DNA of 64,000 nt from NCBI GenBank assembly GCA_045159875.1, contig CP067995.1:96001-160000 (forward strand), in the 5' to 3' direction. A model generated the notes under the pieces. The model did no database searches. It saw nothing but the letters and a program-made list of their open reading frames with translations, and was not told the DNA's origin. This document shows, piece after piece, positions 28,963-37,296 of this stretch (positions within the stretch are counted from its first letter, which is position 1; each line of letters starts with the position of its first letter). The DNA comes from a cyanobacterium endosymbiont of Rhopalodia gibba (GTDB taxonomy: Bacteria > Cyanobacteriota > Cyanobacteriia > Cyanobacteriales > Microcystaceae). The position numbers and the translations under genes were made by a program.

Positions 28963-31791
28963 TCAATAATTCGAGTTATTTTGCATATTGAGAAATTGAG
29001 TAAATTCTGGCTGAAATAAAAGTTTAATGGGACCAGTTGGTCCATTTCGGTGTTTTGTGATAATTATTTCTGCAATTCCCCTATCTGCAGTGTCAGCATT
29101 ATAATACTCATCGCGATATAACATCATAATTAAATCAGCATCCTGTTCAATTGCCCCACTTTCTCTTAAATCTGACATCATAGGACGTTTATTATTTCTT
29201 GTTTCAACAGCACGACTTAACTGAGATAGAGCAACAACAGGAACATTTACCTCTCGGGCTAACCCTTTTAAAGAACGGGTAATTTTAGATAATTCTTGAG
29301 TTCTATTTTCACTACCTCCCCCTTCCATTAATTGCAAATAATCAATCAAAACTAACCCTAAGTCTCCCTTTTGTTCTGCTTTTAAACGTCTTATCTGAGA
29401 ACGAATCTGCATTACGGTTATATTAGCAGTATCATCAATATAAATGGGCATTTCTGATAAATTACCCAAGGCTAAACTTAACTGTTCATATTCATTTTGG
29501 ACAAATCTTCCCGTCCGCAAACGATTTCCTTCAATTCTCGACTCAGCGGCCAATAATCTTAAGGAAAGTTGTTCTTTTGACATTTCTAAGCTAAAGATAG
29601 CTATAGGTAGTTTACTATTTTTGGCAATATTAGCAGTCATCGCTAAGCCGAAAGCTGTGTTATGTACACAAATGTCATTAGCAACAAAATTATGAGTTTC
29701 CGGAATAGTTAAATCATAGACTTGTTGTTTCCCAGTATATTCAATTGAGGCAATTTCATCCCAATAAACCTCACTTGTTGCTAGTGCTAGTGGCTCTAAA
29801 GATAAATCATCTACAGTTAGGGCTGATTTCAAGAGTTTATTTCGTGACAATGCTCGTTTATGAAAACGAAGATTATCATAGCTTTTAACCCCTGCTATTT
29901 TTTCTATATCTGTCCAAACTTTATTCTCTTTAGAAAAAGCTATTTCTTGCCAAATTTCCATTGGAATAAAGTCGCAATTAGTTTGATATTTTTTTCTTAC
30001 TAAAGCTTTTTTAGCTAAGTCAATTACTTTTTCTTTTCCAAAAATTCCTATCTCGTCAACAAAGATTTTAATTGATTGAGCATCAGTAATATTAATTTGC
30101 CAGGTTATTCTATAATGACTTTTGTATTTAGAAAAATTTTTTTTCAGACTAGCAAGTATACCAAATCTTAGCAATAAATGTTGGATTTGACGAGTTAAAC
30201 TTCCACTTAATGAACAATAACCCAGTTGAACTTGTCCACTTTCAACAACAGAAATCCATCCATCAGTAGCAAACAAGCGATTAAGAAACAAACTCAATAG
30301 TTGGGGCTGTAACTCAAAAATAATTGACGGGATAGTTTTATTGTAAACATTTTTACCCCATAAACCTAATTCTTGTAACCAAGTCTTTAATGAATTTTTT
30401 CCATTATCGCTAATACTAGCTATTTCATAATAAGCGAGTTTCTGGAAATCAACTTCTAAAATTTGACATAGATTATCAAAATTTTTTGTATTTAGAACAT
30501 AGTTTTTATGCTTCCAATCATAGATCAAAGAAGGATGAATTCTTAATAATTTTGCTAATTTTTGATCAGACAAATTATTAGATTTAGTTACTTTCTTAAG
30601 ATAATTTGTAAAGATTGTACGATGAATTCTAATAAATTCCAAATCTCCTCTTGTATAAAAACTTGAAGTTCTTGTCCGTCGTGAAGTTTTGCGCCTTACT
30701 TTTACTCCTTTAAACTTACTGACAGATTGAACAAAATCTTTTTGTAGTAAAGGATTATTATTAGTGAATAAAGGATAATCTTTGGTTGAACAACCATCAC
30801 TTATTAAATAGGCTAATAATTTAACTTGATGATTGGGAAGTGTTCTCGTTCCAAAAATATTAATTTTTCGAGGAATGGCGATTTTATCACCTAGTTTTAG
30901 TTGTGAAAGTTGCTGCCACCCCTGAATAGTTAAATAAGGGTGGGTTAAGGTTGTTTCAATATAACGTCCTAGTTTAGTGGTCACTCTAAATACTGGTTTG
31001 ATACCATCATCTATAAAGTTAGATGGATCAGTTATCTTAAACTTCCAATCTTGATTTAACGTTAATAATTGACCCTGACGACGATGATAAATTTCTTCTA
31101 TTGTTACTAAACTGCCGTCAGCTAAAACAATTTCTGAATTAGCTGCTAAACATTTTCCCATAGAAGGCCGTCCTGCAATAATAATTAAATCAGAACGCTG
31201 TAACCCTCCTGTCATAGCATCTAAGTCATAAAAATCCGTTTGAATTCCAGGTAAAGATATTTTTTGATGACGTTTTTCTAATTCACTGTAGGTTTGTACC
31301 AAAGTATCAGCAATAGGAATTAATCCTTCTTGAGGACGCTTTTGAGTCAACCTAAAAATTTTCTTTTCTGACTCATCTAAAATTTGGTCTAATTCCTTAG
31401 TAGTTTCAAATCCTAATTCTACTATTTCATGACCGGATGAAATTAATTGACGGCGTAGGTATTTCTCCATTACTATTGAGCTATAACGGTCGATATTGAC
31501 GGCTGAAACTGTACGATCCAATAATTGCATTAATTTATCAACGCCGCCTATTTTTTCGAGAAGTTGATAATCTTCTAAGGAACTTTTTATCGTTAGCAAA
31601 TCAACGGGGTTTCCTTGAACGTAAAGCTTCAACGCTGCCTCATAGATTTTTTTATGAACCGGAACATAAAAAGCATCTGGGGTAATTAAATCTACTATCC
31701 GCTCCATGGCATTTCGATCCAGTAAAATACCGCCTAAAATGGATTCTTCTGCTTCAATATTTTGGGGAGGTAGGGCATTGTTAGCAACCAT
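28963..31791 (-). CDS. dnaB: Replicative DNA helicase DnaB (intein-containing precursor)
   Basis: PPQNIEAE, GRPSMGK|TAF split Walker A, FSLEMS, IDYLQL and SDLRESGAIEQDAD. Confidence 0.97.
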   Translation of the reverse strand: MVANNALPPQNIEAEESILGGILLDRNAMERIVDLITPDAFYVPVHKKIYEAALKLYVQGNPVDLLTIKSSLEDYQLLEKIGGVDKLMQLLDRTVSAVNIDRYSSIVMEKYLRRQLISSGHEIVELGFETTKELDQILDESEKKIFRLTQKRPQEGLIPIADTLVQTYSELEKRHQKISLPGIQTDFYDLDAMTGGLQRSDLIIIAGRPSMGKCLAANSEIVLADGSLVTIEEIYHRRQGQLLTLNQDWKFKITDPSNFIDDGIKPVFRVTTKLGRYIETTLTHPYLTIQGWQQLSQLKLGDKIAIPRKINIFGTRTLPNHQVKLLAYLISDGCSTKDYPLFTNNNPLLQKDFVQSVSKFKGVKVRRKTSRRTRTSSFYTRGDLEFIRIHRTIFTNYLKKVTKSNNLSDQKLAKLLRIHPSLIYDWKHKNYVLNTKNFDNLCQILEVDFQKLAYYEIASISDNGKNSLKTWLQELGLWGKNVYNKTIPSIIFELQPQLLSLFLNRLFATDGWISVVESGQVQLGYCSLSGSLTRQIQHLLLRFGILASLKKNFSKYKSHYRITWQINITDAQSIKIFVDEIGIFGKEKVIDLAKKALVRKKYQTNCDFIPMEIWQEIAFSKENKVWTDIEKIAGVKSYDNLRFHKRALSRNKLLKSALTVDDLSLEPLALATSEVYWDEIASIEYTGKQQVYDLTIPETHNFVANDICVHNTAFGLAMTANIAKNSKLPIAIFSLEMSKEQLSLRLLAAESRIEGNRLRTGRFVQNEYEQLSLALGNLSEMPIYIDDTANITVMQIRSQIRRLKAEQKGDLGLVLIDYLQLMEGGGSENRTQELSKITRSLKGLAREVNVPVVALSQLSRAVETRNNKRPMMSDLRESGAIEQDADLIMMLYRDEYYNADTADRGIAEIIITKHRNGPTGPIKLLFQPEFTQFLNMQNNSNY
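29659..31152 (-). mobile_element. DnaB intein (498 aa) with LAGLIDADG homing endonuclease and internal HTH
   Basis: Starts at C1 (CLAANSEI), block B TLTHPY, ends VYDLTIPETHNFVANDICVHN followed by Thr+1; LLAYLISDG and FLNRLFATDG motifs. Confidence 0.95.
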
Positions 31792-34389: not shown

Positions 34390-34715
34390 CGACTTTTTTC
34401 CAGTAACAAGACTTTTAAAAAATCTAACATTTTTTTGGAAAAGTCAGGACTTTTAGTTTGTTAAACGTCGTTTTATATAAGTTATCTACCAATTGCTTTA
34501 TAAAGTTTTGATCCATGTCGTAGGTTACCAAATGAGACTGGGTAATTCGATTGTAAGCCTTCTCAAGTTTATGTGATGTATCGTTAATTTCTTGTTACTC
34601 CATCTTTGAGGTTGGATTACACTGAATGTTCAGTACAAATAATTATAATTGACACTTTTTTAAAAGTACGTCAAGATATTTAATGTAAAAGTGACTTTTG
34701 TAAGGCTAAAGATAA

Positions 34716-35363
34716 ATGACTGTGGAGCTACTGTAGCTGGCTAACACATAATAAATTGTGCGTCAATATGGTTACTGGGCAGTGTTTATGGGCATCACCT
34801 TAGAAAATATAGGAATTCCCATTCCTGGGGAAACCATTAATATTACCGGAGGAGTCCTAGCTGGAAGTGGAGATTTAAATTATTGGATAGTGATAGGAAT
34901 GGCCACTGCAGGAGTAGTTCTCGGCAGTAATTTTGGCTATTGGATTGGTCGGTTAGGAAGTTGCGCAGTTTTATTAGTATTTGGGCGTTTATTTAGAATT
35001 CCTCAAACAAAATTAGAGGAAGCTAAGGCATTATTTGGTAATAATGCGGTGAGTGCTATGTTTTTTGGACGCTTTGTAGCGTTGTTGCGGATTTTTGCCG
35101 GACCCATGGCGGGGATTATTAAAATGTCCTATAGTCAATTTTTGCTATGTCACTTTGGTGGGGCTGTGATTTGGGCATCTTTTATGGTGACTTCATCTTT
35201 TTTTGTGGGACGCATTATTCCCCTACACCAATTAGTTGAGTCCATGGCTCAATCGAGTATTGTTGCATTGGCTTTGTTGACAGCTTGGATTGTTATTCCT
35301 TGGTGGCTAGATCGTAGAAATCAGAAGTCTCCGACTTCAGGCTCGAAGACTATAACAGACTAG
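34716..35363 (+). pseudogene. DedA family protein; ancestral N-terminus has three in-frame stops (may still be expressed from GTG 34758)
   Basis: YGYWAVF.GI.LEN.GIPIPGE and FFGRFVALLRIFAGP motifs; ATG 34716 reads MTVELL*LANT**IVRQYGYW in frame. Confidence 0.65.
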
Positions 35364-35364
35364 A

Positions 35365-36050
35365 ACCTCCATAAATGATTGATTCAGGAATCTTCCATCT
35401 CTATCACTCCTGTGATGAAATATCTGGATAAATTACCCCAATCAACGTAAGTTTGACGAAATTTTAAATAAGAGAAAGGAGGCCAGTTTACTTTTCCTTC
35501 ATGAATCTAAGATAAGGTTTTTTATCTAAAATCAAGTATAAGCAAGTTGTTTATGAGCAAATTACAGTTTGGGTTCTAAATGCCGTCCCACCATAATCTT
35601 AGTCCCATCTAGCTGAGCCTTTAAAAACTTAGTGTGATCTACTGCTAGCCTGATAAACGACTCGTATCGGAGTAGAGTCAATCAATACTAATTCCTGTAA
35701 TTTTTTCCTTGCAAGTCTGTAAAAAACAGAAAGGTGACACCATCGTCTAGGATACAGCCACCACAAAACAATTGGAGTTTATTAGATTAGGAAATACTTT
35801 GTCACAATGGAGAAGAACCCGTAACGTAACTAAATCCTTTAAAAGTTTGGTATCCTGACCCAGGAAAAGTGATTATAATGCTCGTAACTTCATCTCTTTT
35901 CAAATGAGAACGGCATTCTTCTCCAATAAATAAAATACTGTTAATTGAAGAACAGCACTGTTATTCTGTCCAAATTTTTGATGAAAGTCATCTAAATCAC
36001 AAAATATTTTGATAAGTATCGAGACAAAATCTTATATTAATAGCACTAAA
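35365..36050 (-). mobile_element. IS982-family transposase remnant
   Basis: IFCDLDDFHQKF, EVTSIIITFPGSGYQTFKGF, FPNLINSNCFV and ITGIS.IDSTPIRV...SH*VFKG motifs with frameshifts and stops. Confidence 0.82.
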
Positions 36051-36172
36051 CTTTAATAAATACTGTTTTTAGTATAAAGTTACCGTCCTGTCTGTCCATG
36101 AGTTTCTTTCGAATCCACTTTACGTTAGTCATTTTTTAGAAAAAGTTGGTAAGCTATTAGGTAATAGGATAA

Positions 36173-36237
36173 ATCGTTCATCTGCCTACTTGGTAGACGG
36201 AAGTAAGGAGTTGTGAGAGCTTCTGAAGGAACGCGCC
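36173..36237 (+). ncRNA. Glutamine riboswitch (glnA RNA motif)
   Basis: P1 CGTTC(36175-79)/GAACG(36229-33), P2 TCTGCC/GGTAGA, conserved GGAAGTAA junction, P3 GGAG/CTTC, TGAAG; matches the three-way-junction glnA aptamer. Confidence 0.9.
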
Positions 36238-36272
36238 TCATTCGATAATTCAACGAATTTGAAGGAGGCGAC

Positions 36273-36434
36273 ATGAAATCTCATAATAATTGTCTTAGTT
36301 TTAAGTCCAAAGATAGGTTGCTGTCTGTTGCGGAACAGTTGCGTTTTCTGATCAGCCAGGATCGCCGAAAACAGCAAAATCGCCAACTTTCTATGCGATA
36401 CAGACTAGCGTCTGAAGTAGGGACGGATATTTAA
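36273..36434 (+). CDS. Glutamine synthetase inactivating factor (IF7/IF17 family), 53 aa
   Basis: GGAGG SD; MKSHNNCLSFKSKDRLLSVAEQLRFLISQDRRKQQNRQLSMRYRLASEVGTDI aligns with IF7 (Q.R.L......NRQ.SM..R.A.E.G); lies downstream of a glutamine riboswitch as gifB does. Confidence 0.85.
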   Translation: MKSHNNCLSFKSKDRLLSVAEQLRFLISQDRRKQQNRQLSMRYRLASEVGTDI

Positions 36435-36453
36435 CAGTCAATTCATGACTAAT

Positions 36454-36481
36454 GTGGGAATCAATAGTTGTTGATTCCCAC
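36454..36481 (+). terminator. Hairpin after the gif-like gene
   Basis: gtgggaatcaa-tagttg-ttgattcccac (11-bp perfect stem). Confidence 0.65.
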
Positions 36482-36534
36482 CAATGACTCCCTACTGATT
36501 TACTTTAGATGTTCACGACAGAAAAAAATAAATT

Positions 36535-36666
36535 GTGACCAACAACAACCAACAAAACATTAAACAAATTCACCGCACGAATATGTTACGGATTCTCAAA
36601 TACCGCTTAAAAGTTACCAAACAACAAAGTAACATCCGGTTAATTGAACAACTCGAAGCTGAATAG
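36535..36666 (+). CDS. pirA: PirA-like small protein (PII-interacting regulator of arginine synthesis), possibly decaying
   Basis: (V)TNNNQQNIKQIHRTNMLRILKYRLKVTKQQSNIRLIEQLEAE* fits the PirA pattern H..N....L..RL.VA...G...L...L..E; GTG start; TAG five codons before a downstream TGA (36679-81). Confidence 0.65.
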   Translation: MTNNNQQNIKQIHRTNMLRILKYRLKVTKQQSNIRLIEQLEAE

Positions 36667-36843
36667 GCGTTGTTACAGTGATTTTGCCTTGCAGTGACAG
36701 ACGTTGGTCCTGTCTCATGTAAATCAGAAAGTCTCACGCAAAGTTTTCATAGAGTATGGAGTTGCTATAAGAATTAGAATTCTAGGCTTTTGGTGGGCGA
36801 CGCCCAACTTAAGTTCAATGATTTTGAGGAAGTTGGCCAATAC

Positions 36844-37296
36844 TTAAAAAGGAATTGGATCTTCTTCTCCATCAAAAGTGGTTAAGGTAGGAGTAGGGAC
36901 AGGCTGGACCGATTCGGGATAGGCGGAAGATTGGTAAGAATCTCTAGAAACAACATTATCCTCAGAAGTAAAAGGGATTGGGGAAGTGGAGTAAGTGTCT
37001 AAGGAATAAATATGGGAAGCGACTAACTCAACCCGTTTTTCTTTAAATCCCTCAGGACGGTCAACAGTATTCATCGAAAGACGACCTTCAATAATCAGGC
37101 AGTCACCTTCTTTGTAGGTATTTTGCATTTGGGTTGCTAAACTACCCCATCCAATCACTTTTATGCTGGAAGCCAAAGCTTCCGGGCGTCTCCCTGTAAA
37201 CTCCACTAACATTTGAGCAATCGGGGTTTTATCGTCTTGAGTATAACGTAATTCTGGGGGACGGATTACTTTAATCATTAAAACACAACTATTCAT
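36844..37296 (-). CDS. Single-stranded DNA-binding protein paralogue (cyanobacterial Slr1034-like)
   Basis: MNSCVL...PELRYTQD...IEGRLSMN...EGFKEKR.EL and acidic DPIPF tail. Confidence 0.85.
   Translation of the reverse strand: MNSCVLMIKVIRPPELRYTQDDKTPIAQMLVEFTGRRPEALASSIKVIGWGSLATQMQNTYKEGDCLIIEGRLSMNTVDRPEGFKEKRVELVASHIYSLDTYSTSPIPFTSEDNVVSRDSYQSSAYPESVQPVPTPTLTTFDGEEDPIPF

Follow-up and report, generated by a model that had tools for sequence, protein, structure and literature searches.

A glutamine riboswitch, a candidate miniature glutamine synthetase inactivating factor and a probable PirA relic in a reduced cyanobacterial endosymbiont genome

A glutamine riboswitch followed by two small open reading frames (ORFs), of 53 and 43 amino acids (aa), lies between dedA and ssb in the genome of the cyanobacterial endosymbiont of Rhopalodia gibba (here G000; 3.06 Mb, 99.9% complete). 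We analyzed this locus within a stretch of 64,000 nucleotides, referred to below as the window (contig CP067995.1; G000:C1:96001-160000). We propose, with a probability of about 80%, that the locus is an inherited nitrogen-excess feedback unit that has been pared down by genome reduction. Judged from sequence, G000 would retain one functional, glutamine-gated brake on glutamine synthetase (GS) together with a relic of a gene for the regulator PirA, both derived from free-living ancestors. A preliminary description of this DNA had listed five elements here, namely an aptamer, a Shine-Dalgarno (SD) sequence, the 53-aa ORF, a hairpin and the 43-aa ORF; sequence reading, an Rfam scan, ORF calls and folding recovered all five on the + strand. 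For comparison, the genus as sampled comprises four other reduced genomes (G001, G003, G004 and G006; 2.5-3.1 Mb) and three large ones (G002, G005 and G007; 4.6-5.2 Mb).

Results

A conserved glutamine riboswitch precedes the 53-aa ORF

The aptamer matched Rfam family RF01739 over the whole model (positions 1-53 of 53) with 52.4 bits, against a gathering threshold of 35 (E 1.2e-8), and this was the sole Rfam match at gathering level within the 64-kb window. The covariance-model search thereby upholds the glutamine aptamer that the preliminary description had recognized from the sequence. We then compared 24 leaders from nine families of the order, all of which precede genes for relatives of the 53-aa protein (mini-IF genes; see the next section). 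In this alignment the aptamer core does not vary, nor do the segments GAAGGAACGCGCCUC and GAGGCG, with one exception: in one of the 24 leaders a U replaces a G in GAAGGAACGCGCCUC. GAGGCG is unchanged in all 24. Every aptamer position that is invariant across the alignment is intact in G000. RNAalifold recovered helices P1, P1a and P2 from the 24 leaders, and six of the 20 predicted pairs stay paired after changes on both sides. These compensated pairs all fall within P1a and P2, and P1 is invariant.

Downstream of the aptamer, GGAGG lies four bases upstream of the ATG at 36273. A 6-bp helix between CGCCUC and GAGGCG, which would cover this SD, appears both in the minimum free energy fold of the single G000 sequence and in the consensus fold of the 24 leaders. 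Five of its six pairs hold in 24/24 leaders and one in 23/24, with no covariation.

The aptamer is adjoined on its 5' side by a block (36141-36172) that is 91-94% identical to G006, G001, G004 and G002; the 118 nt further upstream are 47-81% identical. The block contains a -10-like hexamer, TAGGAT (36165-36170), and this hexamer and the first aptamer bases are invariant in all seven congeners, so that a core promoter is likely here. A simple sigma-70 promoter scan gave four sites against 3.0 expected, none of them adjoining the aptamer. For the nitrogen regulator NtcA, the consensus had eight matches in the window against 11.9 expected, and those nearest to the unit lie at 31682 and 38058.

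The 53-aa ORF resembles the core module of GS inactivating factors

Both small ORFs are more than chance reading frames, since they match NCBIfam families (IF7A, E 1.9e-4; PirA, E 1.9e-10) and have positional orthologues in six congeners. No Pfam family matches either of them, and for the 53-aa ORF there was no Pfam match at E values up to 1. Within the 53-aa protein, residues 18-52 align to positions 2-36 of the 66 positions of the IF7A profile (NF052599) with 21.6 bits; ten other proteins of the same kind scored 18.9-41.2 bits with this profile. We refer to these proteins as mini-IFs, after the GS inactivating factors (IFs) IF7 and IF17.

To characterize the family we built an alignment of 24 mini-IFs (A2) and one of ten DUF4278-bearing, IF17-type proteins encoded behind riboswitches in relatives (A3); the IF17 type was assigned by sequence reading, and NCBIfam bore this out for three of the ten and Pfam for one. 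A profile-profile comparison (hhalign) of A2 with the IF module of A3 gave a probability of 97.4% and an E value of 1e-11 over 43 columns. Four arginines (R24, R31, R37 and R44) are unchanged in 24/24 mini-IFs, and the spacing of R24, R37 and R44, 13 and 7 residues, is that of R84, R97 and R104 in A3. According to a review, three conserved arginines are each essential for the binding of IF7 to GS (PMC6316151). The mini-IF has neither the N-terminal DUF4278 domain nor the C-terminal tail of IF7 (profile positions ~37-66), and it ends at about position 36. Because of the profile-profile match and the conserved arginines with their spacing, the mini-IF appears to be the bare core module of IF7/IF17. 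The miniature GS inactivating factor announced in the preliminary description is therefore well founded as far as homology to the IF module goes.

No PDB sequence matched the mini-IF, the PirA-like ORF or the IF17-type profile, and by sequence no IF chain was found there. We also noted a variable position: codon 42 of the mini-IF (36396-36398) encodes the Leu of an S-M-L motif in 21 of the 24 proteins and Arg in G000, G001 and G006. The mini-IF of G092, which is outside the 24-protein alignment, likewise has Arg at this position.

A hairpin and RNA-library contigs between and across the ORFs

Between the two ORFs, the hairpin that had been described as 11-bp consists of 11 Watson-Crick pairs plus one G-U pair, closed by a 4-nt loop. 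The surrounding 116 nt fold with a z score of -2.45, and two of 200 shuffled sequences fold as well. The hairpin is not a canonical intrinsic terminator, since no T-run follows it and a terminator scan of 35900-36900 found no sites. G002 and the reduced congeners have it too, with altered stem sequence, and G005 and G007 lack it. The hairpin is not one of the repeats of the genome.

Two RNA runs (X3 and X4), made from a sample that is possibly the source of the window DNA, each yielded one 8-kb contig across the whole stretch, and for this reason they are uninformative on transcription. Two metatranscriptome libraries from one other study (X10 and X18, from a related strain) gave contigs that are 90-99% alike to the window and correspond to 36153-36389, 36363-36540, 36485-36871 and 36511-36868. 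The contig 36363-36540 (X10) spans the hairpin and extends 91 and 59 letters beyond it on the two sides. The last two pieces could just as well stem from the 3' end of ssb, which is convergent. In X10 and X18 there is no cover of 34702-35610, and cover begins near 36150; we draw no inference from the uncovered part. Read as codons, the related-strain contigs differ from the window in the mini-IF by three substitutions, D14N and two synonymous changes.

Riboswitch and mini-IF are conserved amid decaying DNA

We next asked how the unit compares with its surroundings. Between G000 and G006, identity is 98% in the aptamer, 97% in the leader and 96% in the mini-IF, against 76-86% in the spacer, the PirA-like ORF and the flanks. 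Among four reduced genomes, aptamer, leader and mini-IF are 88-98% identical, against 48-86% for the flanking DNA. The earlier impression of a clean riboswitch-IF unit amid decaying surroundings thus stands. The mini-IFs of G000 and G006 differ by six synonymous changes and one non-synonymous change, and pairwise dN/dS among the reduced congeners is 0.04-0.22. These values point to purifying selection on the mini-IF among the reduced congeners.

Several observations weigh against a functional unit. The predicted masking helix never varies, which leaves covariation nothing to confirm it by. Near the promoter no consensus NtcA box (GTA-N8-TAC) was found, nor was there one anywhere between 31695 and 38058. 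The 21.6 bits of the mini-IF compare with a curated cut-off of 70 for NF052599, and the C-terminal half of IF7 is absent. In the lineage since the ancestor shared with G002, the mini-IF has 12 non-synonymous and four synonymous polarized changes, and in our reading of the alignment nine of its 16 residue differences from G002 lie within the first 17 residues. The C-terminal end of the G004 mini-IF is altered by an 8-nt duplication, and G003 has deleted the riboswitch and mini-IF. In addition, a review reports that IF17 without its N-terminus is unstable (PMC6316151), so that a bare core module might be short-lived or weak. Finally, the X10 and X18 contigs are a weak hint of transcription, as they are unstranded, come from one study and could contain DNA.

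Part of this would also fit an alternative in which the whole cassette, including the mini-IF, is a non-functional leftover yet to decay: the loss in G003, the altered end in G004, the lack of an NtcA box and the decaying neighborhood. A leftover would be expected neither to keep every aptamer position that is invariant in the 24 leaders nor to remain at 88-98% identity among four reduced genomes whose flanks have fallen to 48-86%, nor to show an excess of synonymous over non-synonymous changes with dN/dS of 0.04-0.22. We consider this alternative highly improbable and retain the reading of a pared-down but working riboswitch and mini-IF.

The 43-aa ORF is probably a decaying copy of pirA

The 43-aa ORF scored 40.5 bits with the NCBIfam PirA profile (NF050139), below the curated cut-off of 50. 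Its intact orthologues, of 49-53 aa, reach 64.1 (G002), 52.7 (G005) and 54.7 bits (G007). In a tree, the G000 ORF is sister to the G002 copy with support of 97/85, on a branch of 0.43 against 0.18. Since the ORF follows the mini-IF just as its counterparts do in six congeners and takes this place in the tree, its sequence indicates that it derives from PirA. In this respect the label PirA-like given to it at first was apt.

Descent is one matter and function another. In G000, the ATG of the orthologues and their GAAGGAA-type SD are replaced by a GTG and a run of A. A 1-nt insertion (an extra T, common to G003) creates a premature TAG, and without this T the frame runs into a C-terminus like that of G002. 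Of eight columns that are invariant in 46 other PirAs, five are kept and three are changed or lost, namely the A and G of the motif HRLEVAR..G and a C-terminal Y. The PirA-like region is 76-83% identical to G006 and G001, and the flanking non-coding DNA is 79-86% identical. Polarized changes number nine non-synonymous and two synonymous in the G000 lineage, compared with one and four in the G002 lineage (Fisher p 0.036). Elsewhere the orthologue is a 32-aa truncation in G001, is frameshifted in G006, is largely gone in G004 and has a 5' deletion in G003. Pairwise dN/dS against the intact orthologues (0.24-0.53) cannot separate a relic from a gene, because most of the path is under constraint; our call rests instead on the polarized changes and the invariant columns. 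Taken together, these features make it very probable that the ORF is a pseudogene remnant.

The preliminary description had read the locus as two clustered nitrogen-excess brakes, and this part did not stand. If both small genes were functional, one cassette would control GS inactivation and the release of NAGK by PII. The frame is indeed open over 43 codons, its PirA match is significant, and it keeps nine of the 12 columns conserved at 90% or more, so that it may have residual function, which would count against a pure relic. Moreover, PII and NAGK are intact in 5/5 reduced genomes, G000 has no other PirA, which makes this the sole copy, and the related-strain contigs cover the region. Against two working brakes stand the lack of an SD and of an ATG, the frameshifted C-terminus, the loss of three of the eight invariant residues and divergence at the rate of non-coding DNA. 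Breakage of PirA extends to each of the four remaining reduced congeners and to the strain of the RNA-library contigs, where a T is inserted within the ORF, behind 36625, in both runs and one base is missing at 36522, just upstream of the ORF, in one run. We therefore regard a second working brake as improbable and favor a single brake accompanied by a PirA remnant.

The three-part unit is widespread in the order

The unit is intact, with riboswitch, mini-IF and PirA, in the large congeners G002, G005 and G007. We extended the comparison to 151 genomes sampled evenly from the order, G000 included; 92 of them have RF01739 and 141 have PirA. With a mini-IF profile, 19 genomes including G000, from at least ten families, gave hits of 51-90 bits, a class set apart from a next best hit of at most 46. 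RF01739 lies directly upstream of the mini-IF in 18 of the 19, the 19th being cut by the contig start, and a PirA-type ORF lies directly downstream in all 19, among them G010, G040 and the window. Since the unit is intact in three large congeners and occurs in 18 of the 150 other genomes of the order, it is not specific to symbiosis; its distribution indicates that it was inherited from free-living ancestors and is not an invention of symbiosis. A symbiosis-specific origin, which the preliminary description had left conditional on the absence of the arrangement from free-living relatives, is thereby refuted: among the three large congeners that carry it, photosystem II (PSII) genes are intact in the two tested.

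A closer survey of 32 riboswitch loci, inspected from 41 related genomes, showed what follows the riboswitch: a mini-IF at 11 loci, an IF17-type protein at ten, a small membrane protein of 72-76 aa at four, and something else or nothing clear at seven. Among the riboswitch-linked PirAs, 13 of 20 form one well-supported clade in the tree.

Other riboswitch loci were recorded in the course of this survey. G000 has a second riboswitch (G000:C1:1765765-1765842; L002 1501-1578; 50 bits), which precedes a 76-aa hydrophobic protein (L002 1616-1846) for which neither Pfam nor NCBIfam has a family; G002, G003 and G039 show this combination as well, with a 72-aa protein in G039. In G040, G123 and G159, the riboswitch precedes DUF4278-PirA fusions of 142-144 aa (L080:388-813 -, L081:367-798 - and L082:353-781 -), with an N-terminal DUF4278 of 73-78 bits (in the two of three tested) and a C-terminal PirA of 59-66 bits. 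They have the architecture of IF17 with PirA replacing the IF module. Riboswitches in G012, G013 and G020 stand before acidic proteins of 51-69 aa (L009:1593-1799, L012:1598-1780 and L007:1595-1747) with a common motif, D/N-F-x-F-S/E-x-W, for which an NCBIfam search found no family. In G011 (L026, G011:C13:69395-69541), a fragment that lies no more than ~15 nt behind a riboswitch matches only the last 25 positions of the PirA profile, with 38.8 bits; possibly it, too, arose from the three-part unit by deletion.

What genome reduction kept and lost

The large congeners carry, elsewhere in their genomes, a canonical full-length IF7 (116-127 bits) and a canonical PirA (78-84 bits). Neither a canonical IF7 above the cut-off, nor a canonical PirA, nor DUF4278 was found in any of the five reduced genomes. 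In four of the five, no inactivating factor was found apart from the riboswitch and its mini-IF, and G003 has no IF7-family match anywhere in its genome. In G003, the closest reduced relative, a deletion of ~1.3 kb joins window positions ~35234 and ~36576 (L066, around 1449-1457): riboswitch, mini-IF and repeat are gone altogether, dedA has lost its 3' end and the PirA relic its 5' part. As G003 has deleted the whole unit, the unit is dispensable at least there. G019 (1.5 Mb), the most reduced family member sampled, has neither riboswitch nor PirA.

All five reduced genomes carry nifH, glnA, the PII gene, argB and ntcA, and glnA, the gene of the target enzyme, is intact in 5/5. Of the genomes tested for PSII reaction-centre genes, G000, G001 and G003 have nothing but stop-ridden remnants of them, and G002 and G007 have intact copies. 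This gene content is consistent with the picture of a non-photosynthetic, N2-fixing symbiont. In whole-genome searches, the PSII remnant fragment in G000 was located at G000:C1:2122176-2122782. G001, G004 and G006 carry a second NifH-like gene (215-222 bits), probably of the chlL/bchL type; the copy in G003 is broken, and the search of G000 found none.

This setting raises the question of whether riboswitch and mini-IF were kept as a symbiosis-adapted valve, in which throttling GS at high glutamine would divert fixed ammonium to the host. Such a role would be a function added to the inherited feedback unit, with the same anatomy. It would suit reduced genomes that have nifH and, in the three tested, broken PSII reaction-centre genes, that have lost canonical IF7 and PirA, and that in four of five cases appear to hold riboswitch and mini-IF under purifying selection; GS activity in these endosymbionts has been named a key unknown in a genome comparison of 2026 (PMC12903740). 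The unit is, on the other hand, ancestral and common in free-living genomes, it was deleted in G003, it is lacking from the 1.5-Mb genome G019, and ordinary glutamine homeostasis can explain its retention. We consider a valve unlikely and keep to inherited nitrogen-excess feedback as the explanation.

Layout of the locus and its neighborhood

Features of the locus are listed in Table 1. The gene order dedA, riboswitch, mini-IF, PirA and ssb is common to G002 and G000, the difference being a degraded repeat of ~0.5 kb that G000 has as an insertion in the dedA-riboswitch interval. The dedA orthologue of G004 (L021) aligns in two frames, indicating a frameshift; the G000 copy aligns to that of G002 in one piece.

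Table 1. Features of the riboswitch locus and its neighbors, in window coordinates.
Feature	Position	Strand	Basis
DedA/VTT-family membrane protein, upstream neighbor	34758..35363	+	PF09335, 49.8 bits
Degraded dispersed repeat in the dedA-riboswitch interval	35592..36106	none	multi-copy DNA
Likely core promoter, conserved block adjoining the aptamer on its 5' side	36141..36172	+	conservation
Type-1 glutamine riboswitch aptamer (Rfam RF01739)	36173..36237	+	covariance-model match
Predicted anti-SD segment CGCCUC, immediately 3' of helix P1	36234..36239	+	fold predictions
SD GGAGG (36264-36268) and predicted 3' strand GAGGCG (36265-36270) of the sequestering helix	36264..36270	+	
Mini-IF, 53 aa, ATG at 36273, IF7/IF17 core module only (predicted)	36273..36434	+	
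12-pair stem-loop separating the two small ORFs	36454..36481	+	fold
PirA-like ORF, 43 aa, GTG start, probable pseudogene remnant	36535..36666	+	NF050139
ssb, convergent downstream neighbor	36844..37296	-	PF00436, 52.5 bits

The upstream flank had been labeled IS982, and this label was not confirmed, as no transposase family was recognized. The flank is a degraded multi-copy repeat with 15 other, weaker copies in the genome (67-83% identical). Its six ORF fragments match no Pfam or NCBIfam family at E values up to 1, and five copies that we inspected showed no intact element and no long ORF nearby.

Discussion

A model for the unit and its decay

Our model for the unit is a negative feedback from glutamine to GS. 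At low glutamine, CGCCUC would pair with GAGGCG and mask the ribosome-binding site. At high glutamine, ligand binding to the aptamer would open this helix, and the 53-aa mini-IF could then be translated. The mini-IF would bind type-I GS and switch it off, closing the loop. We infer the ligand response, the release of the ribosome-binding site, the binding and inactivation of GS and the co-transcription of the unit; the aptamer, the homologies, the pattern of conservation, the decay of the PirA copy and the wide occurrence of the unit follow from the sequence comparisons above. The ancestral transcript would also have carried PirA, whose product binds PII and releases the activation of NAGK; the G000 copy would be a decaying remnant that probably yields no working protein.

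Relation to known systems

The closest precedent is the leader of gifB, which encodes IF17 in Synechocystis sp. PCC 6803. There, Klahn et al. 2018 postulated that bases behind P1, after a conserved C, pair with the ribosome-binding site in a helix that would melt once glutamine is bound, so that translation can proceed; the authors themselves call this mode of action unproven (PMC6212724). The G000 unit has the same Rfam family in the 5' leader of a GS inactivating factor gene, its post-P1 bases are likewise predicted to pair with the ribosome-binding site, and the predicted logic is the same: high glutamine, inactivating factor made, GS off (PMC6212724). It differs in that the mini-IF, at 53 aa against 149, has no DUF4278, which Klahn et al. 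present as the hallmark of riboswitch-linked inactivating factors (PMC6212724), in that a PirA gene follows within the unit in intact relatives, and in that no NtcA consensus box was found here.

The mini-IF also resembles IF7 (IF7A, the gifA product), being small and arginine-rich, aligning to the first ~35 positions of the profile and keeping the three arginines. Unlike IF7, it has no counterpart of profile positions 37-66 and stays far below the profile cut-off (21.6 against 70), and in the accounts given by PMC6212724 and PMC6316151 canonical gifA is not riboswitch-linked.

For the 43-aa ORF the reference is PirA (ssr0692; Bolay et al. 2021, PMC8092223), since the orthologues in the congeners pass the PirA cut-off. 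Synechocystis PirA is described as a stand-alone gene repressed by NtcA (PMC8092223), unlike the riboswitch-linked PirAs, which sit behind a mini-IF. Bolay et al. 2021 also mention N-terminally extended versions of PirA (PMC8092223), and the 142-144-aa proteins of the relatives, with their C-terminal PirA module, resemble these. Unlike the extended PirAs as they are mentioned there (PMC8092223), the extension here was identified as DUF4278, in the two of three tested, and the genes lie behind a glutamine riboswitch; G000 has none of them.

As a member of RF01739 the riboswitch itself is unremarkable, and gifB already provides an established case in which glutamine gates the synthesis of a GS inactivating factor. 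What differs from the published picture, as far as PMC6212724, PMC6316151, PMC8092223 and PMC9196836 present it, is a factor that consists of a core module without DUF4278 and always has PirA attached. The Pfam-based survey of 2018, as outlined in PMC6212724, would leave the mini-IF among 'proteins without matches', and a survey of this type would count the DUF4278-PirA fusions as IF17-like. We found no description of a riboswitch-gif-pirA operon in the main texts searched; Table S1 of PMC6212724 and Fig. S3 of PMC8092223 may list such loci. Likewise, the main texts of the diatom endosymbiont genome papers that we searched do not mention riboswitch, gif or PirA.

Significance

Two observations could be joined in a broader proposal: that riboswitch, DUF4278-less mini-IF and PirA form a strictly conserved operon in about one in eight genomes of the order, and that in N2-fixing reduced genomes without PSII this operon has been stripped to a single glutamine-gated GS brake, possibly a valve for the escape of ammonium to the host. 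We put forward the two together tentatively, as a possibility rather than an expectation. If the proposal is true, one glutamine-sensing RNA would co-ordinate the shut-off of GS with the PII/NAGK branch towards arginine.

For the family, our comparison suggests that glutamine riboswitches precede a second, DUF4278-less class of inactivating factors that is linked to PirA, whether as a downstream gene or in DUF4278-PirA fusions, and the regulon may accordingly be wider than described. For the endosymbionts, the ancestral nitrogen-excess circuitry was reduced in a selective manner: riboswitch and mini-IF were kept, and canonical IF7, canonical PirA and the linked PirA were lost. What is left in this reduced genome is an unannotated candidate regulator of GS, made of a 53-residue peptide and a 100-nt RNA. 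How N2-fixing endosymbionts hand over nitrogen to their hosts is a live question, and a recent genome comparison points to GS activity in them as a key unknown (PMC12903740). The retained brake might conceivably serve this hand-over, which can be tested directly.

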